Below are positions 9,814 through 23,972 of a DNA stretch of 24,000 bases, piece after piece. How positions within the stretch are numbered: position 1 is the first letter of the stretch; each line of letters starts with the position of its first letter. The notes under the pieces were generated by a model. The model was not told the DNA's origin and searched no databases. It worked only from the letters and a program-made list of their open reading frames with translations. This stretch comes from Roseobacter sp. MED193 (lineage in GTDB: Bacteria > Pseudomonadota > Alphaproteobacteria > Rhodobacterales > Rhodobacteraceae), in NCBI RefSeq assembly GCF_000152965.1, contig NZ_CH902583.1, positions 717,343 to 741,342 of the forward strand, written 5' to 3'. Position numbers and translations under genes: made by a program.

Positions 9814-9926
9814 AAATTTCCGTGGCTATCACCACGTTGTCTGAAGGGCGTTTCAATCTACGCCGGGGCTGTAAGTACCCTCACACAAAGCCAATCATCA
9901 ACCTATGTCAAGATTGATAACTACTT

Positions 9927-11889: not shown

Positions 11890-12076
11890 GATGGCTCCTG
11901 CTCACAGTTTTTTCGCCAAACTGGGCTTTCCAGCGCGCAGGGTCAAGCCACCGGACGCTTTGGCAGCTCTGTGACGCGCCCTACCCGCACCGGATCAGCA
12001 AAAGACCGCTGCCCAGCCTTGGCCCGGCTCACCTGCGCTGCCACGCCCGACATATTTTGGGGAACCCCGCCACAAG

Positions 12077-12109
12077 TGACCCAGCAGGTTTGCACAAAAC
12101 GCTGGGTCA
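12077..12109. promoter_or_regulatory. 9-bp perfect inverted repeat in the lolC/OYE divergent intergenic region
   Basis: 'tgacccagc' at 12077-12085 is the reverse complement of 'gctgggtca' at 12101-12109, with a 15-nt spacer. Confidence 0.3.
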
Positions 12110-12159
12110 TTCGCGGTTTGACCTCAAGTAAAACCTTTCTCGATCCCGGGGACTGCTAT

Positions 12160-12174
12160 TTGATGCAGCATCAA
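12160..12174. promoter_or_regulatory. 15-nt perfect palindrome TTGATGCaGCATCAA, candidate operator upstream of the OYE gene
   Basis: Read directly. It ends 55 nt before the ATG at 12230. The half-sites TTGAT/ATCAA resemble CRP/FNR-family boxes, but the spacing is N5 rather than the canonical N4. Confidence 0.35.
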
Positions 12175-12229
12175 GACTGTGGCGCTCAACGCCAGCCCAC
12201 CCCGATATTGAACAAAAAAGGATGCCCCA

Positions 12230-13339
12230 ATGGACCGTGCCGAGACCCTGTTTACCCCTGTCGACCTAGGCAAACTCAGCGTCAAGAACCGAATTGCAAT
12301 GGCGCCGATGACCCGGACTTATTCGCCAGGAAACATCCCTAACGAGGCTGTGGTATCCTACTATCAGCGCCGTGCAGAAGGAGGCGTTGGGCTGATCATC
12401 ACCGAAGGTACCTTTGTCAACCACGAGGCCGCCAGCGGCTATCCGAATGTCCCCGCATTTTATGGCAAGGAGGCGCTTGCAGGATGGAAAAAGGTCGTCG
12501 ATGCGGTTCATGCCGCTGGGGGTAAGATTGCACCACAACTGTGGCATGTCGGGGCTATTCGTCGCCCCGGTATCATGCCAGGCGGCGACACACCCGGTCA
12601 CAGCCCAAGCGGTATGGCCAAGCCGGGCAAGGTGACGGGTCATGCCATGACGCAGGACGACATCGACAATGTCGTGGCTGCCTTTGCCCAGGCCGCTGCC
12701 GACGCCAAGGAAATCGGCTTTGACGCGATAGAGCTGCATGGCGCCCATGGTTATCTGATCGACCAGTTTTTCTGGGAAGGCACCAACCAGCGCACCGACG
12801 GTTATGGCGGAGATCTGGCACAACGCTCTCGCTTTGCACTGGAAATCGTCCGCGCCGTCCGCGCCGCCGTCGGCGACGACTTCCCGATTATCTTCCGTTT
12901 CTCCCAATGGAAGCAGCAGGACTATTCTGTGCGGCTTTGTGAGACACCCGAGGCCCTGCAGGCTTTCCTCACGCCATTGGCAGAGGCTGGGGTTGATATC
13001 TTCCACTGTTCCACCCGCCGCTTTTGGGAACCGGAGTTTGAAGGGAGCGATTTGAACCTGGCAGGCTGGGCGCGCAAACTGACTGGCAAGCCCACAATCA
13101 CCGTCGGCAGCGTCGGACTGAATGCCGATTTCCTGCCCGAAGATGGCACCGCAGATTTCAAAGCAGCTGAACCCGCCAGCCTGGACCGTCTGATTGAGCG
13201 GGCTGAGCGCAATGAGTTCGACCTTGTGGCCGTGGGCCGTGCCCTGATTGCCAATCCCGACTGGGCCAACCAGGTGGCGGAGGGCCAAACTGAAGGGCTG
13301 GTCGCCTTTGAGAAAAAAATGCTGCACGAGCTGCGCTGA
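12230..13339 (+). CDS. NADH:flavin oxidoreductase, Old Yellow Enzyme family
   Basis: 369-aa ORF. 'LKNRIAMAPMTR', 'GVGLIITEGT', 'QLWHVG' and 'GFDAIELHGAHGYLIDQF' are hallmark OYE/NemA-like motifs. Confidence 0.85.
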   Translation: MDRAETLFTPVDLGKLSVKNRIAMAPMTRTYSPGNIPNEAVVSYYQRRAEGGVGLIITEGTFVNHEAASGYPNVPAFYGKEALAGWKKVVDAVHAAGGKIAPQLWHVGAIRRPGIMPGGDTPGHSPSGMAKPGKVTGHAMTQDDIDNVVAAFAQAAADAKEIGFDAIELHGAHGYLIDQFFWEGTNQRTDGYGGDLAQRSRFALEIVRAVRAAVGDDFPIIFRFSQWKQQDYSVRLCETPEALQAFLTPLAEAGVDIFHCSTRRFWEPEFEGSDLNLAGWARKLTGKPTITVGSVGLNADFLPEDGTADFKAAEPASLDRLIERAERNEFDLVAVGRALIANPDWANQVAEGQTEGLVAFEKKMLHELR

Positions 13340-13371
13340 GGTAAACTCAGCCTCCAGGCACCCTCATTGGG

Positions 13372-13401
13372 TTACCAACCAGCGCATCCTTTGGTTGGTA
13401 A
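13372..13401. other. 10-bp perfect hairpin between the OYE stop and the IS end
   Basis: 'ttaccaacca' at 13372-13381 pairs with 'tggttggtaa' at 13392-13401, with a 10-nt loop. It is AT-rich with no T-tract, so a terminator function is uncertain. Confidence 0.3.
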
Positions 13402-13410
13402 TGCCAGAAC

Positions 13411-13900
13411 TGAGCCTCCCCAACTGGACTGGTCCACCGCTATGTTTAGAAGACGGAGGACCAAGAATGGCAATCAAGCGACCGAAGCCCGAAGCCCGAA
13501 GCCCGAAGAGATTGTCTCGAAGTTACGACAGGTTGAAGTTTTGATGGGGCAAGGCATGCCCCGCCTGGATGCGATCAGACAGATCGGTGTCGTTGAGTAA
13601 ACCTATTATCGCTGGCGCAAGCAATATGGGGCAATGGGCGTGGATCAATTGAAGGAACTGAAGCGGCTCCAGAGGGAGAATGACCGTCTGAGGCGAGCTG
13701 TGTCGGATCTGACCTTGGACAAGCTGATCCTGACTGAGGCCGCAAAGGGAAACTACTAAGCCCCGCTCGTCGTCGCGCCTGCATCGATCATGTGCGCAGC
13801 CAGTTCAAAGTGTCTGAGCGCAGGGCCTGCCGCGTGCTGGGACAACACCGTTCCACACAAAGGCACATCCCGAGAGGCCGTGTCGATGAAGATCGTTTGT
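13411..13900 (+). mobile_element. IS3-family insertion sequence remnant (left end, orfA, first ~50 codons of orfB)
   Basis: The IRL-like terminus 'TGAGCCTCCCCAACTGG' starts at 13411. orfA encodes '...EEIVSKLRQVEVLMGQGMPRLDAIRQIGVVE*TYYRWRKQYGAMGVDQLKELKRLQRENDRLRRAVSDLTLDKLILTEAAKGNY'. The -1 frame continues 'LLSPARRRACIDHVRSQFKVSERRACRVLGQHRSTQRHIPRGRVDEDRL', and the similarity then stops near 13900. No right end is present. Confidence 0.8.
13467..13759 (+). pseudogene. IS3-family orfA (HTH transposase subunit), disrupted
   Basis: ATG at 13467 follows GGAGGA. A 14-nt expansion of the 7-nt unit 'gaagccc' (13484-13508) shifts the frame. There is an in-frame TAA at 13598-13600 where homologues, from memory, have Gln ('GVSEQTYYRWR'). 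Confidence 0.75.
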
Positions 13901-13930
13901 ACCCCGATGGCCAACGGCCATGCACGGCAA

Positions 13931-13964
13931 CGCCGTCACTCCAAGCAACGCGGGAGTGACGGCG
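13931..13964. other. 12-bp perfect GC-rich hairpin
   Basis: 'cgccgtcactcc' at 13931-13942 pairs with 'ggagtgacggcg' at 13953-13964, with a 10-nt loop. It lies just beyond the IS truncation point. Confidence 0.4.
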
Positions 13965-14108
13965 CTTGGTTTGCCATGCTCACCAGCGTTCTTGAGAGAA
14001 AATGACGAGTGACGGGCAAATGACAGCCCAAACTGAGAAGATCCCCCCATCATTTTTGATCATTTCATCGAAAGAGTTGAGCGCGTCCATTATGATCGCG
14101 ACCGAACC

Positions 14109-14135
14109 AGAAAAAAGGGCAAAGCCCTCTTTTCT
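14109..14135. terminator. bidirectional-looking intrinsic terminator hairpin
   Basis: 'agaaaaaagggc' at 14109-14120 pairs with 'gccctcttttct' at 14124-14135 (one mismatch) around an aaa loop. An A-run on one side and a T-run on the other flank it. Confidence 0.4.
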
Positions 14136-14429
14136 CGAACCATCATACGCATTTCAAAAGGAGACACTGCATGATCACTGATCATCTTAAACCGCCGTGA
14201 GCGGTCTATTCACGAATATTCGGAAGACACACCGAAACCGCTGCACATCGCAGCACACAACCTGAAATCCCGCCTAAGGGCGTATTTCCGCCCATTGGGG
14301 CAACAGACATGAACGCCAAGGGCGCATATCTGTCTGGGCCAATTCCCGCTGTTGCGGACCGTCCAGCCTGAGGGCTGCCGGTTGGCCATCAACACTAAAC
14401 AATAATTGAAACAACAGAAAGAAAAGGAG

Positions 14430-15323
14430 ATGGATAATCTCACTATGGACTTGGTGCATCTCACCAAGCGTAACCGTGATGGTAGTTCTGGGACGCAGAA
14501 GAACCGCCAACGGGGGCTGACCGCGATGGCGGCAGAACTGAAGCACCTGGGCTACACGCTGAAAACAGCCCGCTCGATCAAGCCAAAGCATATCAACGCC
14601 CTGGTTGAACACTGGCGGGATACGGGGCTTACCAAAGCCACTATTCGCAACCGCATGAGCTGGCTTAGATGGTGGGCACAAAAGGTGGACAAGATCTCGA
14701 TCCTGGACAAGGACAACGCCACATATGAGTTGAACGACGACCGAACAGAGCGCACCAATATCGCGTTTAGTCTGCATCCAGATCAATTGAATGCGCTGAC
14801 AGATCGGCATGTTCAAGCGGCTGTTATGCTACAAGCTGCTTTTGGTCTTCGCCGGCAAGAGGCCATGAAGATCATCCCGAAAGACGCGATCAAGGCTGAC
14901 AGCCTGAAACTCAAAGGAAGTTGGACCAAAGGCGGGCGTCCGCGCACTATTCCGATCACGTCACAGCATCAACGTGTGGTGTTGTTGGCTATTCGTCAGA
15001 TCGTTGAGGATGGCAGTCTGGTCCCAACAGAACGCAGCTATGCCCAGCACATGCGAATTTATGAACGCCAAGTGCACAAGGCGGGCATCGCCCGCGCTCA
15101 CGGCCTGCGTCACAAATACGCGCAAGCTCGTTGTGAAAAGCTTACAGGCATGAAGTGCCCCATCAACGGCGGTCCTGATCGCTCTTTAATGTCAGAGGAT
15201 CAATACGAACTGGATCGCCAAGCTCGCCAAAGGATCTCCAAAGAGCTGGGTCACAACCGAATTGAAATCACAGATGTCTATCTGGGGCGTCTGCAACAGG
15301 GAGGTGCCGTGTCATGTTCGTGA
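14430..15323 (+). CDS. tyrosine site-specific recombinase (plasmid/phage 'integrase' family without classical SAM-like N-domain)
   Basis: The catalytic signature is read directly: 'AFGLRRQEA' (Arg), 'AHGLRHKYA' (HxxR) and 'LGHNRIEITDVYLGR' (His...Tyr). The start is ambiguous between TTG 14406, ATG 14430 and ATG 14445. AAGGAG lies at 14424-14429. Confidence 0.8.
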   Translation: MDNLTMDLVHLTKRNRDGSSGTQKNRQRGLTAMAAELKHLGYTLKTARSIKPKHINALVEHWRDTGLTKATIRNRMSWLRWWAQKVDKISILDKDNATYELNDDRTERTNIAFSLHPDQLNALTDRHVQAAVMLQAAFGLRRQEAMKIIPKDAIKADSLKLKGSWTKGGRPRTIPITSQHQRVVLLAIRQIVEDGSLVPTERSYAQHMRIYERQVHKAGIARAHGLRHKYAQARCEKLTGMKCPINGGPDRSLMSEDQYELDRQARQRISKELGHNRIEITDVYLGRLQQGGAVSCS

Positions 15324-15424
15324 GCTTGTTCATCATTCTAGGAGAAGTGATCTGGCTGATTGCGATTGGGCTTCAATCCGTCCTGCATGGGCTGGCCGTG
15401 CTGATCAATAAGCTGATCCGATGA
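15314..15424 (+). CDS. possible 36-aa hydrophobic peptide (not in ORF track)
   Basis: ATG at 15314 lies about 10 nt after GGGAGG (15298-15303) and overlaps the recombinase stop. Translation by hand gives 'MFVSLFIILGEVIWLIAIGLQSVLHGLAVLINKLIR*', a single TM-like helix with a basic tail. Confidence 0.3.
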   Translation: MFVSLFIILGEVIWLIAIGLQSVLHGLAVLINKLIR

Positions 15425-15520
15425 AGGGGCTATCATCTATAGGTTGCATTTTGTATGAAGGAACTACCCTGGGGCTTTCCTTGGGGCATCGCGATGCTCC
15501 TCACCATGAGGAGTATTGTG

Positions 15521-15709
15521 ATGAAAATGTTGAGCAGACGGCAGGTGACTGAACTGGTTCTGCACTCACCGCAACACGTTGCACGTTTGGAAGCGGCAGG
15601 CCGTCTCCCTGTAAGGGTAAAGCTGGGCCACAACCGCGTGGGGTGGGTTGAGGATGAAGTCTTGGACTGGCTTCAACAGCGCATCAATGTCCGCAATCAA
15701 CAACACTAA
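15521..15709 (+). CDS. AlpA-family HTH regulator/excisionase-like protein (62 aa)
   Basis: ATG at 15521 follows GAGGAG (15508-15513). 'LSRRQVTELVLHSPQHVARLEAAGRLPVRVKLGHNRVGWVEDEVLDWL' fits the AlpA/Phage_AlpA pattern (HTH, then 'FP.p.klg.r.v.W...ev..W'). Confidence 0.75.
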   Translation: MKMLSRRQVTELVLHSPQHVARLEAAGRLPVRVKLGHNRVGWVEDEVLDWLQQRINVRNQQH

Positions 15710-15726
15710 CTCTCCTTGGCGAGAGC

Positions 15727-15758
15727 GAGGGCTGGCCGAGAGGCCAGTCCTCTTTTTT
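15727..15758 (+). terminator. rho-independent terminator after the AlpA-like gene
   Basis: An 11-bp stem pairs 15727-15737 with 15742-15752 (one G-U) around a GAGA tetraloop. It is followed by TTTTTT at 15753-15758. Confidence 0.65.
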
Positions 15759-16122
15759 AACTGATGCGCGGGACGGACGAGGCGATAAACTATTACCAAC
15801 CCCAGGCTGGCCTGGGGCTAATATGACGCGAACAGCCCGTAGCGAACCTTCAGCACTAGACCAGCATATGGCGGCGCGGCCCGCCATTATGGCCATTCGT
15901 ACAGGTCGCGGCATTTTTTCCTGCTGAAATGTTAGATTTTCGGACTTTGTTAACGTTCGAAATACTCCGCCGCTTGTAGTCCCGTGAGACGACAGAACCC
16001 TTTCTTCCATTTTGAACTGAGATTAGTGTTACTATCTTACGGTACATAATTACAAATTAGATTGGATATTTCGCTAAATTGATTTATGGAACCCACAGAC
16101 TTTCGACACGGAACTTAAAGAT

Positions 16123-16872
16123 ATGCTAACAAAGAATTCCACGTTGATTTTTAACTATTTTGATGAGGGTCGGCGCTTGATGAGGGAACACCTAGAAAGC
16201 GATCCGTATGAGAGCCTCAAGCAGAACGTTTATTCGGCGTCTTTTTTATCGCTACTCGAACACACATTGACGCCGATGATGAGTGAGCGGCGTATTAGAG
16301 TGTGGCATTATACCCATCTCTTAAATGACGAGATTGCATCGATGCAAAGAAGGCTGGTTCCCTCTTCACTAATCGGACTCGAGCAGCGGCTTGAATCACT
16401 AATAAATAGAAGGGTAATTTCAAAACAAGAAGCACAGATCATATACGATCAGAGTCCATTTCACCAACAAGGGGGCTTACGGTCCAATCGGGTCTACACA
16501 ACTACGGTTCCTTTTTCACCGGAGTATCCGGGCGTTGTACCTCTTCTGCAGAGCTGGGGCGGAGAGTCGGCCTATTTTTGGCTGTCCGACGAAGTTATTG
16601 CAGCGAAATTGAAAACTATCGGGACGCCACGTATTGTGGAAATCGAAACGGCACTAGAGGATGAGATGAACGCGTATTCTTCCGCGAGGACGGCCACCGA
16701 AGCATGGGCTAGAACTCTCGACGTAGCCGTGGAAGTTTTGAGTAGTGATCTTGCAATCATTGATTGCTTGGATACAGCCAAAGTTCTGCGTGTACATACA
16801 GCGGGCGATGGTGTTTTCGAAAAATTAGCTGCAAGTTACCCATCTGAATATAAGTCACAATTCACCAATTGA
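16123..16872 (+). CDS. orphan hypothetical protein (249 aa), low GC
   Basis: Clean ORF at about 45% GC in a roughly 60% GC genome, with an AT-rich upstream region. No family recognised. The spaced motifs 'RVWHYTHLLN' (H62/T64), 'RVYTTTVPF' (Y125) and 'IVEIET' (E173/E175) are noted under findings. Confidence 0.6.
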   Translation: MLTKNSTLIFNYFDEGRRLMREHLESDPYESLKQNVYSASFLSLLEHTLTPMMSERRIRVWHYTHLLNDEIASMQRRLVPSSLIGLEQRLESLINRRVISKQEAQIIYDQSPFHQQGGLRSNRVYTTTVPFSPEYPGVVPLLQSWGGESAYFWLSDEVIAAKLKTIGTPRIVEIETALEDEMNAYSSARTATEAWARTLDVAVEVLSSDLAIIDCLDTAKVLRVHTAGDGVFEKLAASYPSEYKSQFTN

Positions 16873-17139
16873 TGCCCAGACATTGATATTCATGTTGGGC
16901 TCTGATCTGCCTTGAGGTGGTGCAGCGAGTGTTTCCCCTTCTTTTAAGTCTTTTGGTTTGGCCTTTGTACCATTTTGTAGAAAATTAGCTATGCGAACTT
17001 AGATATACTCACGTTAGAGCGGAAAAACTCGGGTGTTGAGCAAAGCCCTGCGGCAAGGTCTTTTTGTGATAGAGGCAGGCCGCAGTCTGGTAGGCTTGTA
17101 TGAAGGGAGGGCTGACTTGACCTGGATTATACATCAATT

Positions 17140-17178
17140 TCAGAAAGAAAAACGCGAAATCAACCTGGACTGAGGTTG
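17140..17178 (-). terminator. possible terminator of the HNH gene
   Basis: A 'caacct'/'aggttg' hairpin at 17161-17178 lies 3 nt after the stop on the minus strand. A T-rich tract ('cgtttttctttc') follows after an 8-nt gap. Confidence 0.3.
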
Positions 17179-17181
17179 TCC

Positions 17182-18267
17182 TCAAAATACCAAGAAGGCA
17201 AGTATAAGCGCAAGAACTATAAAGCTAATAATTGTGGAGAAAGGTCCACCACCTTCAGGTTGAGGGGGTTTTCCTTGCTCTAGTCTCTTAAAAATATGTC
17301 TTACTCTCGACTGCCAATTTTCAGGAAGTTCAAAATTTATTGTTCTGCTAATGGTCAGTGGTTCTTTGGAGCCAGATTCTTCATGCCTTATTGCTTCTTC
17401 CAGGGCGTCATTCAGAGTTTTTGGGATGCTGGCCAACTTTAATGCTTGCGAACCAAGCTGACCAGCAGCAACCGATTTGCATTCTTCGTACTCATCTGAG
17501 ACAATCGTAGATCTCACGCGCTCTTCGTGCGCAACAATCTGATCTAGCCAGTGAGACAATAGTTGGCAGGTGTGATGGATTTCCTCAATGTTACCTTCTT
17601 CTCCGCGATCACCCCAGCTTGAACTTAACCGGTCAAGCAGCTTTGAAGCTGGTTCTACCATCGCTAACATTTCTCGAATTCGTTGATCTAACCATGCTAG
17701 TAAGTCGTCGTCAGAAATGTGCTCGCCAACCGTATTGTACATTCCATCTTCAAGGTCTCTTAGTTTTCGAAAACTTGATTTGGTAAGGTATTGAAACAGT
17801 TCAGCCGTCAAGCGATATTCCCATCCTTGAGGCTTGTCGCGAACAATGCGTTTTATGATGGCTGGGTATTCTGCAAATTCATCAATAGCATTATCATCAA
17901 TCTCTGCTTGAATGCGATCACTTTCGCTGCCGAGTTCCTTTAAAGTGATTTCCTCCCGCTTCTCTCTCCACGCATATAAAAGTTCAGTGGAGTATAGGCT
18001 TTCATCGGCGTCAACTTTACGATGGCAATTTCGGCACAGCCAAATACCATTAGTAATCGCAGACCGCGCAAGGTTTGTTTGCGTGCCATCGTATCGAGGA
18101 GCGCTAGGGCGAGCCCCTGAAATATGAGCGGCCTCTCCAATGATGGTAGCTTTTTCGGAAGAGGAGTTTGGTCCAACCGTGCTCACACCGCAATCAATAT
18201 TTGAACATCGATAGCCAGCTCTTTTTGCTAACGTGTCTACAGTTTTCTTTGGAAAATCTGGGCTCAT
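17182..18267 (-). CDS. HNH endonuclease-domain protein with unknown helical domain and C-terminal membrane anchor (361 aa)
   Basis: The N-terminus has the HNH zinc-finger pattern C21-x4-C26 ... 'GEAAHI' (H48) ... 'NGIWLCRNCHRKVD' (N73, C78, C81, H82). An uncharacterised helical region of roughly 200 aa follows. The last 20 residues, 'PFSTIISFIVLALILAFLVF', are hydrophobic. The start is placed at ATG 18267, because the ORF-track extension to 18426 overlaps the neighbouring remnant and looks non-coding. The SD is weak. Confidence 0.7.
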   Translation of the reverse strand: MSPDFPKKTVDTLAKRAGYRCSNIDCGVSTVGPNSSSEKATIIGEAAHISGARPSAPRYDGTQTNLARSAITNGIWLCRNCHRKVDADESLYSTELLYAWREKREEITLKELGSESDRIQAEIDDNAIDEFAEYPAIIKRIVRDKPQGWEYRLTAELFQYLTKSSFRKLRDLEDGMYNTVGEHISDDDLLAWLDQRIREMLAMVEPASKLLDRLSSSWGDRGEEGNIEEIHHTCQLLSHWLDQIVAHEERVRSTIVSDEYEECKSVAAGQLGSQALKLASIPKTLNDALEEAIRHEESGSKEPLTISRTINFELPENWQSRVRHIFKRLEQGKPPQPEGGGPFSTIISFIVLALILAFLVF

Positions 18268-18319
18268 AGATGACGTCTTTTTGAACTTTTTCTTTACAGC
18301 TATTGACAAGTTTCCTTCT

Positions 18320-18751
18320 TCATTGATCAGGAAACAAACCCGGCATCCAGCGTCCAGCAAGAGATGCAGAAAAAACGAGCCTGAGTGGCGCACGTGTGCT
18401 GTCAGATGCAATGGCTCCTGTTTCAATCAGAGCGCCGGTCACTCTTCGGGCCGCACGGTCGCTGACACCTAGTATGCCGGGAATGTTGGATCTAGGAACA
18501 GTACCATTGTAGAGCAGTTCCCGTAGGACTAGGTCAGATTTTGACGGAAGTCTGCCCAAGCGCATTTCTTCTTCAGCCCACATTAATATGCGTTCTCGTA
18601 GAGCATCTGGTTTCATGAGTGTCGCCATGAAATCCACTTGGTCGATGCACACCCCAAGGAAAAACTCTACAAATGAGGCGAGAGCGCTTTCGCTAAGTGT
18701 ACCCCTATTGCTCTTTTCTGAACATAGGTACTCGCTTCGAAACTCAGCGAT
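18320..18751 (-). pseudogene. 5'-truncated remnant resembling the C-terminal wHTH region of Fic/DOC-family proteins
   Basis: The open frame extends upstream of the called GTG to a stop at 18752-18754. It reads 'IAEFRSEYLCSEKSNRGTLSESALASFVEFFLGVCIDQVDFMATLMKPDALRERILMWAEEEMRLGRLP...RAARRVTGALIETGAI...PLRLVFSASLAGRWMPGLFP'. This matches my memory of Fic-protein C-termini ('...FFL.VC.DQV.FM...P.L..RI...R.ARR.L..L...G.L...P..L.FP......W.PGLFP'). No Fic core 'HPFxxGNGR' is present. Confidence 0.45.
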
Positions 18752-18822
18752 TTACGAGACTAAAAAGAGACTAAATCCGCTGTTGGGCTTGCTCATTTCC
18801 TCATAAGTGCTTGATTTTGTTT

Positions 18823-18867
18823 GGAGGCGAGTACCGGAATCGAACCGGTGTACACGGATTTGCAATT
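18823..18867 (-). other. 3' half of tRNA-Cys(GCA) with no 5' half; putative attachment-site scar
   Basis: The minus strand reads 'aTTGCAAATCCGTGTACACCGGTTCGATTCCGGTACTCGCCTCCA'. That gives an anticodon loop uuGCAaa, an anticodon 3' stem, a T-arm ACCGG-TTCGATT-CCGGT, an acceptor 3' strand, discriminator U and an encoded CCA. It is close to E. coli tRNA-Cys as I recall it ('GGAUUGCAAAUCCGU...CCGGUUCGA.UCCGG'). Upstream sequence ('ttttaaga') cannot form the anticodon stem, D-arm or the acceptor 5' strand 'GGCGAGT'. Confidence 0.8.
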
Positions 18868-18993
18868 CTTAAAATCTTGTTTCCTGTGGGTTCCTGCGCT
18901 TTCAAAATCGTTTGAAACCATTGACTTATGAATTTTCAGGAATCAGGGTGAAGTCGTGTCTACAACTAAAAACGCCACCAAACCGCCACCAAA

Positions 18994-20097
18994 ATGCAAG
19001 CAAAACTCACAGAAACATATATCACCAAACTGAAGCACAAATCAGAACGGTATGATGTTCGCGACACGGTCGAGCGGGGCTTAGTGCTACGCGTCGGCAA
19101 GAAATTCGGCGCGAAACATTGGCATACGTTTGTTTATCGCGGATCAAAACGCCGAATGGTTCGCTTGGGATTATTCCCGCATATGTCGGTGCGTGATGCA
19201 CGCATGGCAGCCATCCAAGCCAAAGCGAATGCGAACGCTCCTTGGACACCTGAGCACATCAAAACGGTGGCTGATCTGTTCGAAGAGTATCGAAAAGCAC
19301 GAGAGCCAAAAATGCGCGCATGGCGTGACGTTCAATCCGCTTGGGATGTCTGGGGGGAGGAGTTCTTAGGTTATCTGAAATTGACCGATGTTTCGATCCA
19401 TCATGGGCGTGAACTACGCAATCATGTTTCAAAGAAATCGACTGAGCTGCGCGGGAGTGCCGTAATTAGATACATTCGACCTATGTTTTCATGGGCGGTT
19501 GATGAAAGTCTGATCGATGAAAATCCTTGGGCAGGATTGAAGGCTACGGCGATTGCCACACCGCGTGATCGAGTGTTGACGAATGAAGAATGGCAAAAGG
19601 TATGGGGTGCCACGTTTAAGGATAACCTCGGGGCGTATTTCAGGTTTCTGATGTTATCGGCGCAGCGCAAAGACAATGTTGCCAGCATGAAATGGGATGA
19701 GATTCAGGGCAATCTTTGGACGATCCCCGCTGAAAAATTCAAAGCGACAAAGAAGGAGAGCGCAAAAGCCCACGAGGTGCCGCTGACACCTGCGTTAATG
19801 GAGATTTTGGAAAATCAGCCCAAACGAGGGCCGTTTGTGTTTGGGCCAACCGGTTTAAAGCAGCTGCGACTCGGTTCACGTGAAAAGGACCGCTTGGCAA
19901 AGAAGGCAGGTGTAGATGACTGGCGGCTTCATGATTTGCGCCGAACCGCTGCAACGAGGATGACGGAGAACAAAATCCCAAGATTCATCGTTGAGCGCGT
20001 TCTTGGCCACGCGGACCGAAGCGTTACTGCGGTCTATGATCGGGCAAATTACAGAGAAGAAAAGAGGCAGGCATTAAACGAATTATCGAAAAACTGA
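18994..20097 (+). CDS. int: tyrosine integrase, P4-like (DUF4102-type N-terminus)
   Basis: 367-aa ORF. The N-terminus 'KLTETYITKLKHKSERYDVRDTVERGLVLRVGKKFGAKHW' fits the P4-integrase arm-binding domain pattern. The catalytic residues are 'SAQRKDNV' (Arg), 'LHDLRRTAATRM' (HxxR) and 'VLGHADRSVTAVYDRANY' (His...Tyr). It lies 126 nt from the tRNA-Cys fragment. Confidence 0.9.
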   Translation: MQAKLTETYITKLKHKSERYDVRDTVERGLVLRVGKKFGAKHWHTFVYRGSKRRMVRLGLFPHMSVRDARMAAIQAKANANAPWTPEHIKTVADLFEEYRKAREPKMRAWRDVQSAWDVWGEEFLGYLKLTDVSIHHGRELRNHVSKKSTELRGSAVIRYIRPMFSWAVDESLIDENPWAGLKATAIATPRDRVLTNEEWQKVWGATFKDNLGAYFRFLMLSAQRKDNVASMKWDEIQGNLWTIPAEKFKATKKESAKAHEVPLTPALMEILENQPKRGPFVFGPTGLKQLRLGSREKDRLAKKAGVDDWRLHDLRRTAATRMTENKIPRFIVERVLGHADRSVTAVYDRANYREEKRQALNELSKN

Positions 20098-20132
20098 ACG
20101 CAAGAGTTGCACCCGTTCATTGGCTGAATGCT

Positions 20133-20909
20133 GTGAACTATTTTATTGATCAGAATCTTGGGAGTGATGTGTATTCAAACAGGGGCGACTTTTCTTTTGA
20201 TGGGCCAGTCGTTGAACCTGAGATGGATGCTTTCGATGCGCAAAATCGAGTTGTGGCCATCGCGGATCACTACACGGCGATCATAAATTCGAGCGAAACT
20301 GTTCTTTTCTATCTTTGCTTTGACCTGTCTATCGGAATCGTTAAGCGAAAGACTGGGTATGCGATGGATCCGATTTGGGCCAACGGCGTCTATGAAGCAG
20401 CGAAAGTCGATTTCAAAGTGTACACGCGTTTGGCTGAAGTGGTCAGTGAAAACCTCACCTTGAATGTTGCAGTTCCAGCAAAATTGAGAGTTTTCGCTGG
20501 CGAGGTAATGTCAGGGATGTTTCCGGTTCCTAACAAACAGGGGCCAGCGATTACACGAGACAAATTGCGCAACTTGGCAATCTTTGAGAGCGTAGATTTC
20601 CTATGTGAGAAGTTGGGGATGCAATTTGAATCGGACGCGAAGGAAACGTGCCCGAATGCGACCGCTTTGGTGTCTGACGGTTTTTCCCATGTCGAATATG
20701 TGAATAGCAGCTTGGGCAAGCCGACGCCCAGCGTCATCAAGCGCATCTGGAAAAGAGAACACCGCGCGCAAATGCGCTATGAGGTGTCAATGCTGCGATG
20801 GCTTGAAAATAAAGAGAAATCAAACAGGTGGTATAAAAAATTCGGATTTATGTTCTGGATGAACAGAAATCTCCAAAATCTAAACACATGCGTTTCCCGG
20901 CAACGCTAA
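20133..20909 (+). CDS. orphan hypothetical protein (up to 258 aa)
   Basis: Clean low-GC ORF directly downstream of int. The called start at 20133 is a GTG without an SD. Alternatives are GTG 20169 (after GGGAG) and ATG 20223. No motif recognised. Confidence 0.5.
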   Translation: MNYFIDQNLGSDVYSNRGDFSFDGPVVEPEMDAFDAQNRVVAIADHYTAIINSSETVLFYLCFDLSIGIVKRKTGYAMDPIWANGVYEAAKVDFKVYTRLAEVVSENLTLNVAVPAKLRVFAGEVMSGMFPVPNKQGPAITRDKLRNLAIFESVDFLCEKLGMQFESDAKETCPNATALVSDGFSHVEYVNSSLGKPTPSVIKRIWKREHRAQMRYEVSMLRWLENKEKSNRWYKKFGFMFWMNRNLQNLNTCVSRQR

Positions 20910-20948
20910 TCATTCTGAGTGCATGCAGATGAATCACAGGAGTCAGCG

Positions 20949-21164
20949 ATGCATGCAGAAGAAACACAGAATGACGAGTTGCAGGAGTACTACCGCGCCG
21001 CAGAGGCCGCCGCCTATCTGAAGATATCCGAAAGCCAACTTTCCAAGTTGCGGATGCAGAAAAACCGCGCACGTGGTCCTAAGTTTGCCAATATCGCAGG
21101 TTGCATCCTGTATCGGCGCGTAGATTTGGATGCTTGGATCCTGTCGAAGATCGTTTCTGCATAG
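20949..21164 (+). CDS. excisionase-family/MerR-like HTH DNA-binding protein (71 aa)
   Basis: ATG at 20949 lies 7 nt after AGGAG (20937-20941). 'YYRAAEAAAYLKISESQLSKLRMQKNRARGPKFANIAGCILYRRVDLDAWI' fits the HTH_17/excisionase pattern. Confidence 0.7.
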   Translation: MHAEETQNDELQEYYRAAEAAAYLKISESQLSKLRMQKNRARGPKFANIAGCILYRRVDLDAWILSKIVSA

Positions 21165-21175
21165 CGGGGGCGATC

Positions 21176-21964
21176 ATGGCAGTGAAATACTACGCACAGA
21201 TCGACTTTGATCTGTTTTCAAACCCAAAATATCGAGCGCTTTCGTCCAATGATATCCGTTACATTTATCTGGCGGCGCATTGTTCGAAACTGAGTAACTA
21301 CATTGGTCTGTTTCGCTATCCAGTAGATATTTGGAGCTACGATGCGAGTGCCAAGCCGCTAGAGATAGAGGCCGCAATTTCTGAACTTCAGCGTTGCGAC
21401 CTCATAGAATACGACTTTGAATATCAAACGCTGCGTCTGGTTGGCTGGTTCAGTTCCCTGAATGCCCCGAACAATGGCAACCAAATGAAAGGCCACATCA
21501 AGAGCTTTTCGGGTTTGCCAACATGTCCGCCAGAAATGTTTTGTCGTGCCGTGTCCGAGTTCACGGTCTCAAGTTTCAAGCAGGCGTTGTCATGGGAAGA
21601 CCTAAGCCCGGAACACAAGAAAGTTCACGATGCCTTCAGGACGTTTTTGAAGGCGCAGTTTTTCAAATACGGCGATGACTTCAATCTGATCCTGATGGAC
21701 GAGATCAACAAACGCGGCAGGGTGACATTTGGCGCGATCCAGTCCTGCTATCAGATGTTGCCGAGCGAAGGGCTGCATAGCGTGCAACCCTTTCGCAAGG
21801 GTATCGAAACCCTTTCGAAACAAGAGAAGAAAAAAGAGGAAAAAACAATAAATCAAAAAACCTTAAACGTTTCGCCGCCTCGTAATTCCAGCGTCACAGA
21901 CAAGCCAAGTTCTTCAGCCCTCAATAGCGAGATCGCCAAACAGGCGCGCAAGGAGCTGATTTGA
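21176..21964 (+). CDS. hypothetical protein, possibly replisome-organizer/replication-initiator-like (262 aa)
   Basis: ATG at 21176 follows GCGGGGG. The N-terminus 'KYYAQIDFDLFSNPKYRALSSNDIRYIYLAAHC' resembles the phage replisome-organizer N-terminal pattern ('W.kl..d.fd..K...L......iYi.Ll'). The C-terminus is Lys/Glu/Ser-rich. The functional call is weak. Confidence 0.45.
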   Translation: MAVKYYAQIDFDLFSNPKYRALSSNDIRYIYLAAHCSKLSNYIGLFRYPVDIWSYDASAKPLEIEAAISELQRCDLIEYDFEYQTLRLVGWFSSLNAPNNGNQMKGHIKSFSGLPTCPPEMFCRAVSEFTVSSFKQALSWEDLSPEHKKVHDAFRTFLKAQFFKYGDDFNLILMDEINKRGRVTFGAIQSCYQMLPSEGLHSVQPFRKGIETLSKQEKKKEEKTINQKTLNVSPPRNSSVTDKPSSSALNSEIAKQARKELI

Positions 21965-22425
21965 TGTCCGGTTCCCCGCAAAGAGCAAGGTTACCCTCCG
22001 ATTACATCGGCGGGACTTGTGAGGGGCGGCAAGCCTCCCCTTCAAACCCCAACCCGACGCGCGCAAGCGGCGTCAAAGAGGGCCTTTCCGAGAGCGTGAT
22101 CTTTCGATGCACACCGTCGGAGAAGGCAGCGCTTGTGGCCAAAGCGCGCGCCGCTGGCCTGCCCAACGCCACGCTGATGCGTGAGGCCTTGGGGCTGGCT
22201 GAGGCACGTCGGCGCAAGCCCGTCCCCCGTGTTGACCCGAAGCTGACCTTTGCGATTGCCCGCGTCGGCGGCAACCTCAATCAGCTCTCCCGCTGGATCA
22301 ACGGAGCGGTCAAATCCGGCCGCGCGAGCCAGATCGATGCGCTCAAGGTCGCGACACAACTGGTGGTCATCGAGCGGCAGATGGCGCAGATCGTGGCGGC
22401 ACACACAGGCGATAACTGCGAATGA
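21964..22425 (+). CDS. mobC: MobC/MbeC-family relaxosome accessory protein (RHH)
   Basis: 'IFRCTPSEKAALVAKARAAGLPNATLMREALGL' (RHH) and 'ARVGGNLNQLSRWIN' (MobC signature). ATG 21964 overlaps the preceding stop (TGATG). An alternative in-frame GTG at 22096 would remove a low-complexity 44-aa N-terminus. The stop overlaps the relaxase start (ATGA). Confidence 0.8.
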   Translation: MSGSPQRARLPSDYIGGTCEGRQASPSNPNPTRASGVKEGLSESVIFRCTPSEKAALVAKARAAGLPNATLMREALGLAEARRRKPVPRVDPKLTFAIARVGGNLNQLSRWINGAVKSGRASQIDALKVATQLVVIERQMAQIVAAHTGDNCE

Positions 22426-23972
22426 TAATCTCGTTCTTCTCCACCGGCACAGGCGGCGGAGCTGCACCCGTCGACTACCTGATCGCACGCGAAGTTCTTG
22501 CCTATGACGAGAACCGCAATTTGATCCGCGACGACACCAGCAAACCGCAAACCAAGATCCGCGACCCGTTGCCTGAGGTGCTGCATGGTAACCCCGACCA
22601 AACCCGCGACCTGATCGACGCGAGCACCAACAAGTGGAGCTACACGGCGGGCGTCATCAGCTTTGCCGACAGCGATGATCCCAGTCCCGACGCCCAGCAA
22701 GAGGCCATTGAGCTATTTGAGGCTCTGGCCTTTGCTGGGCTGGACAGGGACCAATACGATTGTCTCTGGGTGCGCCACTCGCATGAAGGCAACGTCGAGC
22801 TGCACTTCTGCACGCCACGCCTTGAGCTCAGCACCGGCAAGGCGTTGAACATCGCACCGCCAGGCCATGAGAGCGCCTTTTCCAGCCTCCGCGATTTGAT
22901 GAACAAGACGCACGGTTGGGCAGACCCTTTGGACCCAGAACGCGCACGGGAGGTAAGGGCGACGATTGAGGCTCCAACCCGCGCACAGGGGCGCGAGGCG
23001 CTGCACGATTGGCTCCTCGATCAGATCAGCGTCGGCACCGTTACTGACCGTGCCAGCATGATCGACGCACTCACTGACGCGGGATTCGACATCCCCCGTG
23101 CCAGTAAGAATTACATCACCGCCCAAGACCCCGACACCGGCGAGCGCTGGCGTTTGAAAGGAGAGATTTTCCATGACGACTGGCAAGCCGAACCGCCTCG
23201 CCGAGAAATTGAACGCGGACCTGGAGATAGTACGCAGCGACCACGCCGCCTTGATGGCATCTCAGCTGGAGAGCTTCAGGAGCGATTTCAGCAGCATTGC
23301 GACCAGCGCGCTGCATACAATCGAGACCGATATCAGGTTCTTTCTCAGCGACAGCAAGAGCGAATTGCAGAGGCGGAGCGAGACGCTCCGGCGCTGGCTG
23401 ACGATATCGCCTTGGGTGATCGTGGGGCTGATCTTGGCGTGGATCGCCTCGACCGTGGCGGTGAGCTGGCTCTGGATGACCTTTTTGACGCATTCGGAAC
23501 TGACGGAACTGGGTCTGACACGGATCGAACACGCGGGGCAGATTTGGCTGACGCTGGATCCCGATCAGACCGAAATGAAAACCTGCACGATGGCGGGAAC
23601 ACCGATCATCTGCATCGAAGTCAGGGGGCAGTAAATGACGACGCCACTGACAGCCTTGGAGCGCGATTTGCTCGCCTGCGTCGAGCGATTGGTGACGGCC
23701 TGCGAAACCTCAGCGCAGGAATTGCGCGCTTTGGAAGCGCGCTCGACGAACGGGATCGAGAGCAAAGTGAATGGGTTGGCGCATTGCGTGGCGCTGCTGA
23801 TGAAATCGCATCTCTTGTCGGTCGCCACATTGGCCGACTTGCTGAGAGAGGAGCAGACCTACGAGACGCTTCAAGAGGGCTTAGAGGCCAGTTTGAAATT
23901 AGCGAAACACGCCGAGCAACGGCTGAACGAGGCCTGAGTGAACAAGAACGCGGCCATAGCCTCGGCCTTTAA
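22422..23972 (+). CDS. relaxase, ColE1 MbeA-like (MOB-HEN type)
   Basis: 516 aa, against my recollection of about 517 aa for ColE1 MbeA. The N-terminus 'MIISFFSTGTGGGAAPVDYLIA' parallels MbeA 'MIVKFHARGKGGGSGPVDYLLG', with the Tyr at position 19. 'LWVRHSHEGNVELHFCTP' aligns with the MbeA H-E-N motif region. The C-terminal half is low-complexity and overlapped by two nested genes, as in ColE1. Confidence 0.88.
   Translation: MIISFFSTGTGGGAAPVDYLIAREVLAYDENRNLIRDDTSKPQTKIRDPLPEVLHGNPDQTRDLIDASTNKWSYTAGVISFADSDDPSPDAQQEAIELFEALAFAGLDRDQYDCLWVRHSHEGNVELHFCTPRLELSTGKALNIAPPGHESAFSSLRDLMNKTHGWADPLDPERAREVRATIEAPTRAQGREALHDWLLDQISVGTVTDRASMIDALTDAGFDIPRASKNYITAQDPDTGERWRLKGEIFHDDWQAEPPRREIERGPGDSTQRPRRLDGISAGELQERFQQHCDQRAAYNRDRYQVLSQRQQERIAEAERDAPALADDIALGDRGADLGVDRLDRGGELALDDLFDAFGTDGTGSDTDRTRGADLADAGSRSDRNENLHDGGNTDHLHRSQGAVNDDATDSLGARFARLRRAIGDGLRNLSAGIARFGSALDERDREQSEWVGALRGAADEIASLVGRHIGRLAERGADLRDASRGLRGQFEISETRRATAERGLSEQERGHSLGL
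23173..23634 (+). CDS. MbeB/MobB-like mobilization protein nested in the relaxase gene (+1 frame)
   Basis: 153-aa ORF in an alternate frame. AGGAG at 23159-23163 lies 9 nt before the ATG. It has a central TM helix 'ISPWVIVGLILAWIASTVAVSWLWM' and a tail 'GLTRIEHAGQIWLTLDP', consistent with the MbeB architecture as I recall it. Confidence 0.65.
   Translation: MTTGKPNRLAEKLNADLEIVRSDHAALMASQLESFRSDFSSIATSALHTIETDIRFFLSDSKSELQRRSETLRRWLTISPWVIVGLILAWIASTVAVSWLWMTFLTHSELTELGLTRIEHAGQIWLTLDPDQTEMKTCTMAGTPIICIEVRGQ
23635..23937 (+). CDS. MbeD/MobD-like protein nested in the relaxase gene (+1 frame)
   Basis: The 100-aa ORF starts at the ATG immediately after the MbeB-like TAA (TAAATG). AGGGGG at 23623-23628 lies 6 nt upstream. 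The sequence is helical and coiled-coil-like ('LERDLLACVERLVTACETSAQELRALE'). Confidence 0.55.
   Translation: MTTPLTALERDLLACVERLVTACETSAQELRALEARSTNGIESKVNGLAHCVALLMKSHLLSVATLADLLREEQTYETLQEGLEASLKLAKHAEQRLNEA

Follow-up and report, generated by a model that had tools for sequence, protein, structure and literature searches.

A decayed island adjoining tRNA-Cys in Roseobacter sp. MED193 carries a predicted membrane-anchored HNH nuclease and a member of an unrelated, portable gene family

Introduction

HNH nuclease domains of the Cap5/SPARHA clade are fused to many different sensor modules and are activated through the formation of tetramers or filaments, with oligomerization having been argued for the entire clade (PMC12738770). 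In Cap5, the HNH-SAVED effector of CBASS, an N-terminal HNH domain precedes a regulatory SAVED domain in a protein of ~360-390 aa, and the gene is operonic with that of a CD-NTase. The SPARHA HNH-APAZ effector (PDB 9OM4; PMC12738770) combines the nuclease with APAZ, a short Argonaute partner, and guide-RNA logic, and its residues H53 and N71/H80 are required by experiment (PMC12738770). An HNH-type part is also found at the N-terminus of Shedu SduA, where it is accessory to a DUF4263 PD-(D/E)xK nuclease. Integron cassettes are known carriers of phage-defense genes, as one preprint, for example, indicates (bioRxiv 10.1101/2024.07.02.601719).

Here, we compare these systems with a locus in a 24,000-nt stretch of the genome of Roseobacter sp. 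MED193 (the window), in which a low-GC block at 15900-18822 had been predicted to be an undescribed defense or toxin locus. We consider it fairly probable that the locus comprises the remnant of a genomic island, a second integrative element, and two unrelated, independently moving cargo genes, one for a 361-aa HNH protein and one belonging to a ~264-aa family, with the roles proposed below.

Results

The GC content of 15900-18822 was 0.453 compared to 0.571 for 1-15899. Because no 2923-nt segment across 1-15899 fell below 0.547 (mean 0.573, sd 0.010), this drop is far beyond local variation, which confirms the sharp fall near 15.9 kb that had been predicted and supports a foreign composition of the block. 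Earlier counts on single 60-nt lines agree with ours at 16021-16080 (26.7%, given as 27%), 16201-16260 (45%), and 17701-17760 (45%), but not at 10021-10080 (63.3%, given as 65%). The GC content was still low at 18823-22000 (0.486), and the anomaly is therefore broader than the block first delimited, reaching 22 kb. The drop starts in an AT-rich non-coding region (15753-16077; GC 0.474 overall) 5' of the 264-aa family gene, in which no consensus sigma-70 promoter was found. All three features that the original prediction placed in the block were recovered (an ORF at 16123-16872 on the plus strand, an ORF at 17182-18267 on the minus strand, and the C-terminal remnant of a Fic gene), as was the neighborhood of integrase, AlpA, IS3 remnant, and tRNA-Cys fragment that it described.

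The probable left margin of the older island is decayed and comprises remnants of an IS3-family transposase (13367-13959, plus strand) that encode short, broken ORFs only, with 81% identity to an annotated IS3 family transposase gene over 13411-13880. These are followed on the same strand by a 305-aa tyrosine recombinase (14406-15323; Pfam Phage_int_SAM_2, 2e-17, and Integrase_1, 6e-13) and an AlpA-family regulator (15455-15709; Phage_AlpA, 6e-06), 3' of which lies an intrinsic terminator (15727-15752, plus strand), a terminator-like hairpin of 11 pairs with a T-run. A match to Rfam RF02649 (Trans44 sRNA; 116.8 bits versus a gathering score of 108) at 15487-15752 overlaps the AlpA ORF and terminator. 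At the other end of the block, the 5'-truncated Fic-family remnant (18323-18718, minus strand) aligns with residues 265-396 of an annotated Fic family protein of 398 aa (65% identity, 132 aa), as had been anticipated. The remnant comprises the C-terminal third only and lacks the Fic catalytic core; it has no Pfam match and does not encode the core motif HxFx(D/E)GNGRxxR.

Neither ARAGORN nor Rfam detected a tRNA in the window, and the tRNA-Cys fragment was recognized through its identity to full tRNA-Cys genes elsewhere. About 45-46 nt at 18822-18866 (minus strand) are the exact 3' part of tRNA-Cys(GCA). Several Rhodobacteraceae plasmids match the 46 bp at 18821-18866 with 100% identity, and in these plasmids ARAGORN calls a full tRNA-Cys over the match. 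A metagenome contig (L182) with 99.97% identity to window positions 11182-18866 encodes an intact tRNA-Cys at its positions 37-110, the 3' part of which equals window positions 18866-18822. On this contig, the same block lies immediately 3' of the intact tRNA gene and ends with the AlpA and integrase genes, the latter being the tyrosine recombinase of 14406-15323, while the Fic remnant is already truncated. L182 thus combines two features of tRNA-associated islands, a position directly 3' of a tRNA gene and an integrase. A second copy of the tRNA 3' end, which would form a distal direct repeat, was not found in the window with up to three mismatches allowed; the distal end of the island carries the IS3 remnants.

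To the right of 18866, L182 diverges from the window and, at this junction, does not contain the second integrative mobilizable element (18994-23972, plus strand), which is inserted in the tRNA-Cys gene and lies outside the cargo block. All genes of this element are on the plus strand and include an integrase (18994-20097; Pfam Phage_integrase and Arm-DNA-bind_3), an HTH_17 gene (20919-21164; Pfam HTH_17), a MobA-like gene (21961-22425; weak NCBIfam MobA/MbpA matches), and an MbeA-like relaxase (22422-23972; NCBIfam relax_MbeA_E1, 3e-43), together with 258-aa (20133-20909) and 287-aa (21101-21964) ORFs to which no function was assigned. The second element accounts for both the tRNA-Cys "scar" and the extended low GC. 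The tRNA-Cys fragment, which had been read as a scar of the block's own integration, is instead the att junction of the second element, given that the tRNA-Cys of L182 is intact. In this history, the block would be the leftover of an older genomic island directly 3' of the tRNA-Cys gene, ordered integrase, AlpA, cargo, and truncated Fic, and the second element would later have entered the same tRNA-Cys gene to give the 45-nt fragment at the junction. Collectively, these observations identify the low-GC block as the cargo of a genomic island, now decayed, that adjoins a tRNA-Cys gene.

The gene for the 361-aa protein (17182-18267, minus strand; stop codon at 17182-17184) is convergent to the 264-aa family gene, and its start at the ATG at 18267 is backed by homologs beginning MxPDF. 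The original prediction of an N-terminal HNH domain, a helical domain, and a C-terminal anchor was right. The HNH nuclease domain (aa 1-112; 17932-18267) contains catalytic H48, N73, and H82 as well as Cys21, Cys26, Cys78, and Cys81. It is followed by a helical-bundle domain (aa 113-341; 17245-17931), modeled by AF2 as long helices with pLDDT mostly >90, and by a hydrophobic tail (aa 342-361, FSTIISFIVLALILAFLVF; 17185-17244) that is a predicted tail-anchor membrane helix, with AF2 also predicting a helix at 342-360. This architecture is kept in more than 200 proteins across phyla, and 40 of 45 aligned family members from several phyla keep it including the uncharged hydrophobic C-terminus. 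All family members share H48, N73, H82, and three of the four Cys, the exception being Cys26, which is at least 90% conserved; in the helical domain, R140, D144, W149, E156, D171, W192, H232, E248, and E249 are invariant.

Comparisons to named systems consistently point to the HNH domain. Foldseek matched the 361-aa model to Cap5 (8fmf, prob 1.0), and in a PDB profile search the solved structure nearest in sequence to the HNH domain was the SPARHA effector (9om4; 4e-11 over residues 9-117), followed by Cap5, with H48, N73, and H82 aligning with SPARHA H53 and N71/H80. The similarity to Cap5 comprises the same HNH fold and clade (~108 aligned residues at 21-24% identity; profile matches 7rwm, 8fm1, and 9dif), a similar overall size, and the N-terminal position of the HNH domain. 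Unlike Cap5, the 361-aa protein has no SAVED domain, its C-terminal 250 aa being an all-helical bundle and membrane tail; matches to SAVED_HNH models end at approximately profile position 105-118, and AF2 predicts only helices after residue 94. It also has neither the APAZ domain nor the Argonaute partner and guide-RNA logic of SPARHA, which in turn lacks a membrane anchor, and no Argonaute-like ORF was found in the block (ORF list and Pfam). The best PADLOC match was PDC-M68A (3e-23), of which only profile positions 1-115 of 253 were matched, in the HNH region only. No other PDC-M68 component was matched by PADLOC among neighboring ORFs, and no mention of PDC-M68 was found in the literature searched. 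CBASS HNH effector and SAVED_HNH models (1e-9 to 3e-15) likewise matched the HNH region only, and SduA (2.5e-9) matched at its N-terminal part (profile positions 26-126 of 326), while the DUF4263 nuclease of Shedu is absent from the 361-aa protein (no Pfam match). These results suggest that the protein is a membrane-anchored, Cap5/SPARHA-type HNH DNase with intact catalytic residues. The helical domain gave no informative sequence or structural match (Foldseek returned generic bundles, e.g., talin rod), and a sensor role for it is consequently a conjecture; we propose that it is a sensor or oligomerization module.

Across the eight cellular contexts compared for the HNH family (the window, L006, L166, L168, L169, L172, L186, and L187/188), no neighbor was shared. 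Five are mobile-element, defense, or toxin-antitoxin spots: the island in the window, an ICE with ArdA and AIPR, an nSTAND/kinase-PP2C-VWA cluster, a T7-like integrative element, and a variable spot with SocA/Panacea and MNT/HepT. The other three are ordinary chromosomal neighborhoods. In the window, the gene is flanked by the Fic remnant and the convergent 264-aa family gene, and there was no nucleotidyltransferase match in Pfam or NCBIfam there and no CD-NTase gene in the other contexts. Whereas Cap5 is operonic with its CD-NTase, the HNH protein stands alone in all contexts examined.

The ORF at 16123-16872, previously described as encoding a 249-aa protein from its first canonical ATG (16123), is real but is a start-codon variant of a ~264-codon family gene (16078-16872, plus strand). 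Preceding this ATG in the same frame are 15 conserved N-terminal codons (16078-16122), with ATT occupying the position at which relatives start; they read IDLWNPQTFDTELKD and fit the family N-terminus MDxWNPxTFDxEL. The closest homolog reads ...TTTCGCTCAATG at the start versus ...TTTCGCTAAATT in the window, such that ATG has become ATT at 16078 and a TAA stop has been created immediately upstream. The start-region sequence is identical in independent assemblies. ATT can be used as a weak start codon, as in E. coli infC. With ATT at its start, the window copy is therefore likely to be either poorly expressed or truncated by 15 residues and, in the latter case, probably impaired; it may be crippled. 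It keeps every family-invariant residue, including D2 and W4 after the ATT; the family invariants include R74, H77, Y78, E85, R104, S126, W-G-G-E at 160-163, E188, and H240.

The 264-aa protein has no match in Pfam, NCBIfam, PHROGs, or PADLOC, and the HNH protein is not a full member of any family or system in them; PADLOC gave no full-length match to any system for either. This agrees with the earlier view that the 249-aa protein could not be assigned to a family and that the pair matched no named system. At E<=1e-3, the 264-aa family spans 1146 clusters, almost all of them of single-domain proteins of ~265 aa, and the AF2 model of the window copy has a pLDDT of 89.8. In Gammaproteobacteria, members occur as promoterless single-ORF integron cassettes, defined here as a single ORF preceded by a GTTRRRY core site and followed by an attC hairpin of its own. 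Among 41 close relatives, 15 have GTTRRRY no more than 60 nt upstream, compared with 3.3% of control windows, and a conserved element occurs once per locus after the stop codon in 17 loci, with canonical attC ends (TAAC...GTTRRRY) and hairpins (z -3.4 to -5.2). The genes of close relatives also have a conserved leader and lie in co-oriented arrays of unrelated small genes. Core sites and attC hairpins thus identify these relatives, at the sequence level, as integron gene cassettes. They share the single-ORF format with phage-defense cassettes but differ in that the family is absent from PADLOC. Membership of the window copy in a cassette array was ruled out, as there is no GTTRRRY upstream or downstream and no attC, the neighbors are island genes, and the sequence after the stop codon is no more stably folded than its shuffled versions (z -1.2). 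The spacer between the convergent genes (16873-17181, 309 bp) likewise has no attC-like element and no Rfam match.

More distant relatives adjoin AbiEi/AbiEii, TIR, PD-T7-1/5-like, and SIR2 genes, and neighbors in Alphaproteobacteria include AbiE, TIR, and PD-T7-like genes. Most 264-like genes of this distant branch show translational coupling to an upstream gene, which varies, and the term stand-alone consequently holds only for the branch with the window copy. The 264-aa protein would accordingly be described in that branch as a stand-alone, enzyme-like alpha/beta protein.

Discussion

The HNH protein would be tail-anchored in the inner membrane with its HNH N-terminus in the cytoplasm, and its helical bundle stands where the SAVED or APAZ/Argonaute sensor sits in Cap5 and SPARHA. 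It may be kept inactive at the membrane until the helical or membrane part senses a trigger and the protein oligomerizes, upon which HNH domains would pair into composite active sites as in Cap5/SPARHA tetramers. The active enzyme would then degrade DNA indiscriminately, resulting in abortive infection or destruction of invader DNA. It is plausible that both cargo genes are anti-phage. The grounds for a defense or toxin role are domain ancestry and neighborhood: the ancestry of the HNH domain and its surroundings favor the role originally predicted, whereas PADLOC matches confined to the HNH domain and the three ordinary contexts count against it.

That the two genes form one system, either a nuclease with its regulator or immunity protein or a sensor with its effector, is highly improbable. 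The genes are adjacent and both low in GC, and of the three nearest relatives of the 264-aa gene in Alphaproteobacteria, two (L001 and L002/L003) are likewise followed by a convergent HNH gene. Yet those HNH proteins are unrelated to it in architecture (HNH_5 in a 391-aa protein and a C-terminal HNH_2 in a 299-aa protein), have no membrane tail, and show no similarity to the 361-aa protein by tblastn. A full-length relative of the HNH protein was present in only one of 128 non-redundant 264-family loci, namely the window, and a 264-family gene in none of 16 HNH-family loci. Co-occurrence limited to the window suggests independent single-gene modules, convergent genes cannot share a transcript, and the 264-aa gene moves as a single-ORF integron cassette; its occurrence alone as a cassette or in alphaproteobacterial defense and toxin-antitoxin islands implies that it works without the HNH gene. 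The missing co-occurrence in these loci largely refutes a two-gene unit. The "intact gene pair" of the original prediction, one member of which has no canonical start codon, is thereby abandoned in favor of its fallback of two single-gene systems. A different role for the HNH protein alone, as a constitutive nuclease or superinfection-exclusion factor at the site of DNA entry rather than a triggered suicide effector, also seems quite unlikely. The tail anchor would hold the HNH domain at the inner membrane, the entry point for phage or conjugative DNA, and relatives occur on an ICE and prophage-like elements; but both characterized systems of the clade are indiscriminate DNases that are off until oligomerization, an unregulated non-specific DNase at the membrane would threaten the nearby chromosome, and the conserved 230-aa helical domain implies regulation.

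We regard it as unlikely, if less so, that the block is decaying, inert cargo composed of a 264-aa pseudogene, a Fic fragment, and a selfish or toxin-like HNH nuclease without benefit to the host. Decay is evident in the change of ATG to ATT with TAA directly upstream, the loss of all but the last third of Fic, the IS3 remnants, the lack of a distal att repeat in the window, and the second element that has overrun the island. Both ORFs are otherwise intact, however, with all family-invariant residues kept, including the HNH catalytic and zinc-binding residues, and ATT may still initiate weakly; independent samples contain the block at 99.97-100% identity, and it therefore persists in the population. 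As to the chemistry of the 264-aa protein, a highly divergent, NAD+-using ADP-ribosyltransferase (ART) fold is a weak lead, and the sole one, drawn from structure models; we consider it doubtful, though rather less so than inert cargo. Its target would be a nucleic acid, protein, or small molecule, as for DarT, Tpt1/KptA, and the cassette-borne Arr. The ART superfamily is marked by a split-sheet fold with an H-Y-E or R-S-E NAD-binding triad. Among 32 weak PDB Foldseek matches, 10 were from five ART-fold families (Tpt1/KptA, cholera toxin A1, DarT1, cholix toxin, and PARP1), and a viral library again gave PARP-catalytic, ART-domain, and Tpt1/KptA entries. The protein has a first strand that contains His-Tyr as well as invariant Glu residues, and its invariant strand motif V-W-H-Y-T and invariant Glu and Arg suit what we take to be an H-Y-E-like site. 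Against this, all fold matches were non-significant (best PDB E = 0.73, TM 0.19-0.25; best viral-library match E = 0.028, to an uncharacterized protein), and neither Pfam at E<=10 nor a PDB profile search returned anything related to ADP-ribosyltransferases. The protein further differs from ART enzymes in a 70-aa N-terminal helical extension and long helical inserts, and no DarG-type partner antitoxin is present.

Within the favored view of an island remnant with two independent cargo genes, it is a tentative possibility, well short of an even chance, that these represent two undescribed single-protein immune modules: a membrane-tethered HNH nuclease with its own helical sensor and a new portable enzyme family. 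If so, the HNH protein would be a self-contained abortive-infection nuclease that requires neither second-messenger nor Argonaute input. The 264-aa family would be a portable conflict module, possibly with a very divergent NAD-using ART-like fold, that travels alone as a cassette in Gammaproteobacteria and is coupled in Alphaproteobacteria to a swappable upstream partner (AbiEii, DUF4238, PD-T7-like, and others).

Composition and History of the Island

The cargo block at 15900-18822 had been described, in the original prediction, as a low-GC region holding two intact ORFs and a 5′-truncated Fic-like remnant, and this description proved accurate: inspection of ORFs in the window recovered all three features. 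The sharp drop in composition was borne out by a GC content of 0.453 across 15900-18822 versus 0.571 across 1-15899, with a minimum of 0.547 for any 2923-nt window within the first 15.9 kb. Counts for single lines within the block were reproduced (26.7%, 45%, and 45%), whereas the control line yielded 63.3% and not the 65% reported. GC content is still low (0.486) up to about 22.0 kb, spanning a second integrase and three more ORFs, and the anomaly is thus broader than stated.

The Fic-like remnant (18323-18718, minus strand) is indeed truncated, corresponding to residues 265-396 of a 398-aa Fic protein (65% identity), which indicates that the catalytic part is gone. Positions 18822-18866 (45-46 nt) comprise the 3′ end of a tRNA-Cys(GCA). 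A metagenome contig (L182) that is 99.97% identical to positions 11182-18866 encodes an intact tRNA-Cys exactly at this fragment, and its sequence departs from that of the window beyond 18866. The ancestral order was therefore tRNA-Cys, Fic remnant, HNH gene, 264-aa gene, AlpA, integrase, and IS3 remnants. Comparison of the two sequences indicates that a second integrative mobilisable element inserted into the tRNA-Cys gene in the window. This element (18994-23972, plus strand) encodes an integrase (18994-20097), HTH_17, MobA-like, and MbeA-like relaxase proteins, and two unassigned low-GC cargo ORFs of 258 aa (20133-20909, plus strand) and 287 aa (21101-21964, plus strand), the latter with weak fulvocin-related and phrog_25711 matches. 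A search for a distal att repeat of the older island found none. As a locus, the block is ordinary: a tRNA island in decay that a second element has overrun.

Within the older island, a match to the Rfam family RF02649 (‘Ruegeria trans44 sRNA’; 15487-15752, plus strand; 116.8 bits against a gathering score of 108) covers nearly the same stretch as the AlpA-family ORF (15455-15709) plus its terminator. This family may represent an mRNA encoding an AlpA-like island regulator, not a non-coding RNA.

Extent of the 264-aa Gene

The protein originally predicted to comprise 249 aa is 100% identical to MED193_06289 of Roseobacter sp. MED193. The ORF exists, but the true gene is longer. Members of the family begin with the pattern MDxWNPxTFDxEL, and the corresponding residues (IDLWNPQTFDTELKD) are encoded in frame immediately upstream of the predicted ATG, such that the gene spans 16078-16872 and encodes 264 aa. 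Position 16078 is the start of an ATT codon that occupies the place of the start codon and is directly preceded by TAA; the closest homologue has ...TTTCGCTCAATG here, compared with ...TTTCGCTAAATT in the window. The same ATT is present in independent assemblies and metagenomes and is therefore not a sequencing error. All 19 of 19 invariant residues are kept (D2, W4, R74, H77, Y78, E85, R104, S126, P127, V153, W160, G161, G162, E163, G182, E188, H240, Y254, and P255). Either translation initiates weakly at ATT or the product begins 15 residues late, without the invariant D2 and W4, and the window copy is probably impaired.

Two Genes or One System

The two intact ORFs had been put forward as a possible gene pair whose homologues might co-occur across genomes, with two single-gene systems as the fallback. 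A full-length relative of the 361-aa protein (hereafter HNH361) was identified in one of the 128 loci of the 264-aa family, namely the window itself, and a 264-family gene was identified in none of the 16 HNH-family loci. The families are thus found together in the window alone, and it is the fallback that is correct. In the loci of the two nearest relatives of the 264-aa gene (L001 and L002), HNH genes are also convergent and downstream of it, which might be taken to favor pairing. However, these encode an HNH_5 protein (391 aa) and a protein with a C-terminal HNH_2 domain (299 aa), and both lack a membrane tail and show no detectable similarity to HNH361. Their presence is what would be expected if nucleases are generally frequent in such islands.

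HNH361 Architecture and Relatives

All homologs of HNH361 (17182-18267, minus strand) start with MxPDF; the gene therefore begins at the ATG at 18267 and not at the TTG of an alternative 414-aa ORF. More than 220 homologs of about 360 aa, sharing the whole architecture, were identified among Proteobacteria, Bacteroidota, Nitrospirales, and Leptospirales. Residues 1-112 comprise the HNH domain, with invariant H48, N73, H82, and Cys21/78/81, and with Cys26 conserved in at least 90%. PADLOC matches (PDC-M68A, CBASS HNH effectors, SAVED_HNH, and the SduA N-terminus) cover this domain only. The top Foldseek matches were Cap5 tetramer structures (prob 1.0, 21-24% identity), and a sequence search of the PDB ranked 9OM4, the SPARHA HNH-APAZ effector, first (E = 4e-11) and Cap5 next. 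The HNH domains of SPARHA and Cap5 are collateral DNases that are switched on by tetramer or filament formation and require H53 (Mlla) and N71/H80 (Aca) for catalysis, and members of the clade are fused to many alternative sensors (PMC12738770). H48, N73, and H82 of HNH361 align with these residues.

Residues 113-341 are modeled as a confident helical bundle (pLDDT above 90) that has its own invariant residues and only generic structural neighbors. A HEPN assignment was dropped because the Rx4-6H motif is absent, and an index-limited word search with the helical and transmembrane part returned only the three closest relatives. The last 19-20 residues form a hydrophobic helix that is conserved in 40 of 45 members, and this probable tail anchor would hold the nuclease at the cytoplasmic face of the membrane. 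HNH361 shares its HNH domain with Cap5 and SPARHA but is stand-alone, with its own helical domain and membrane anchor, and is best described as a new architecture within this kind of effector nuclease. A literature search for PDC-M68 and for membrane-anchored, stand-alone HNH defense proteins recovered no description.

The eight independent cellular contexts of the HNH361 family have no neighbor in common. They comprise the island in the window; an ICE with ArdA, AIPR, and resolvases (L006); an nSTAND/kinase-PP2C-VWA/ParB cluster (L166); a T7-like integrative element (L186); a strain-variable spot with SocA/Panacea and MNT/HepT modules (L187/L188); and three unremarkable chromosomal regions (L168, L169, and L172). 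Both HNH361 and the 264-aa family are rare in viral contigs. At L186:4289-8080, the HNH361-family gene lies directly downstream of a gene for a single-subunit T7-like RNA polymerase (878 aa); the element is bounded by an integrase, also encodes Bro-N and T7_gp14-like proteins, and looks like an integrated T7-like element with the nuclease as cargo.

Size and Structure of the 264-aa Family

A word-index search identified 49 homologs of the 264-aa protein, nearly all about 264 aa, and an exhaustive profile search identified 1146 clusters at E ≤ 1e-3, of which 562 pass ≤ 1e-10; with few exceptions these have a single domain and a length of about 265 aa. Neither this protein nor the Fic remnant ORF has a match in Pfam, NCBIfam, PHROGs, or PADLOC. 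Screening all 40 family members against Pfam at E ≤ 10 returned scattered noise only (e.g., IQUB, CARD), and a profile search of the PDB returned one chance match. The AF2 model (pLDDT 89.8, pTM 0.85) shows an alpha/beta protein whose N-terminal 70 aa or so are helical, and Foldseek yielded no significant match: the best E values were 0.73 against the PDB and 0.028, to an uncharacterised siphovirus protein, against BFVD.

Among the weak Foldseek matches are five families with the ADP-ribosyltransferase fold (Tpt1/KptA, cholera toxin A1, DarT1, cholix toxin, and PARP1), and PARP, ART, and Tpt1 entries recur among weak matches in the viral library. These make an ART-like fold a lead of rather low probability, not a finding. 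Two conserved His motifs recall 2H-phosphoesterases, but the second motif reads H-[TS]-x-G in the alignment and not HxTx, and this candidate was rejected. The family is assignable to no kind so far.

Genomic Behavior of the 264-aa Family

We gathered 165 loci of the 264-aa family, 128 of them non-redundant. There is no conserved neighbor; the commonest neighbor cluster is present in 11 of the 128. The branch that includes the window copy (at least 44% identity, 44 loci) is mostly from Marinobacter, Halomonas-type bacteria, Vibrio, Methylophaga, Hahella, and Oceanisphaera, and its neighbors are short, unrelated, and co-oriented. The stop codon is followed by an attC site with TAAC...GTTAGGC/GTTAT ends and an imperfect hairpin. 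Strict RYYYAAC/GTTRRRY pairing and then a constrained single-hairpin detector were too brittle and missed obvious attC sites; the evidence comprises a profile of the post-stop element, counts of boundary motifs with controls, and direct folding. The profile matched once per locus, always directly after the gene (17 loci), and DNA folds of three example sites gave z = -3.4 to -5.2. Of 41 loci, 15 have GTTRRRY within the 60 nt preceding the start, versus 3.3% of random windows, and the motif is followed by a conserved leader, GGTGGTAAGGATAAGAAGCAAC.

By these sequence features, relatives in this branch are organised as promoterless, single-ORF integron cassettes, so that the 264-aa protein works without a fixed partner. 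Phage-defense genes are documented as integron-cassette cargo. No attC was detected at the window copy or its two nearest relatives (L001 and L002), which lie outside integrons.

In a distant branch (26-40% identity, mainly Alphaproteobacteria), genes upstream of the 264-like gene usually share its orientation, and a 4-nt overlap with its start is very common. Upstream partners include AbiEii (preceded by AbiEi), PD-T7-1/5-like, DUF4238, and SEC-C-motif proteins and several unknowns, and TIR-domain genes and two Rx4H-motif proteins recur nearby. This pattern, a conserved module joined to a swappable partner, resembles that of hyper-promiscuous toxin-antitoxin components. In L030, L040, L047, L061, L114, and L119, for example, the 264-like gene is translationally coupled to a partner (upstream of 8001) that varies from locus to locus. 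In L146, L048, L052, L157, L073, and L066 (around 6400-10700 in each), a five-gene order was observed of AbiEi, AbiEii, the 264-like gene, a 393-aa protein (C-terminal Rx4H), and a 200-aa protein, the central genes overlapping by 4 nt or shortly; here the 264-like gene appears to be embedded in an extended AbiE-type operon.

Other observations were made in the vicinity of 264-family genes. Divergently oriented genes for an 876-aa SIR2_2 protein and a 399-aa partner, at L002:4977-7607 and L003:1956-4586, are situated upstream of the closest homologue of the 264-aa gene (66% identity) and probably form a defense pair in the same islet. Cap5/SPARHA-type HNH domains with different C-terminal regions (a Gly-rich repeat, a helical domain, an AAA-type ATPase-like region judged by eye, and a 1511-aa giant protein) are encoded at L103:3012-3926, L051:2302-3186, L054:5558-6826, L094:1192-2007, and L148:2318-6853, that in L094 being the next integron cassette to the 264-family gene. 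Unrelated to these findings, a Methylophaga locus (L021:2299-2562) contains tandem 24-nt units (at least eight overlapping 96-nt copies) and is probably a repeat-containing coding region.

Implications

The two intact ORFs represent widespread, uncharacterised families for which a role in conflict with phages or mobile elements is credible but unproven. Since the locus is ordinary and one gene is probably impaired, the value lies in the families and not in this copy. The 264-aa family is large, is without a library match, and moves as a cassette, making it a concrete candidate among integron cassettes of unknown function, and its mix-and-match coupling in the distant branch is reminiscent of hyper-promiscuous toxin-antitoxin partners. 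The HNH clade of Cap5 and SPARHA is increasingly recognised as a general ‘kill switch’ for many sensors. The widespread, stand-alone HNH361 version (>200 proteins in several phyla), with its built-in helical domain and membrane anchor, would be its simplest form yet found and would offer a tractable system in which to study how these nucleases are restrained and activated.
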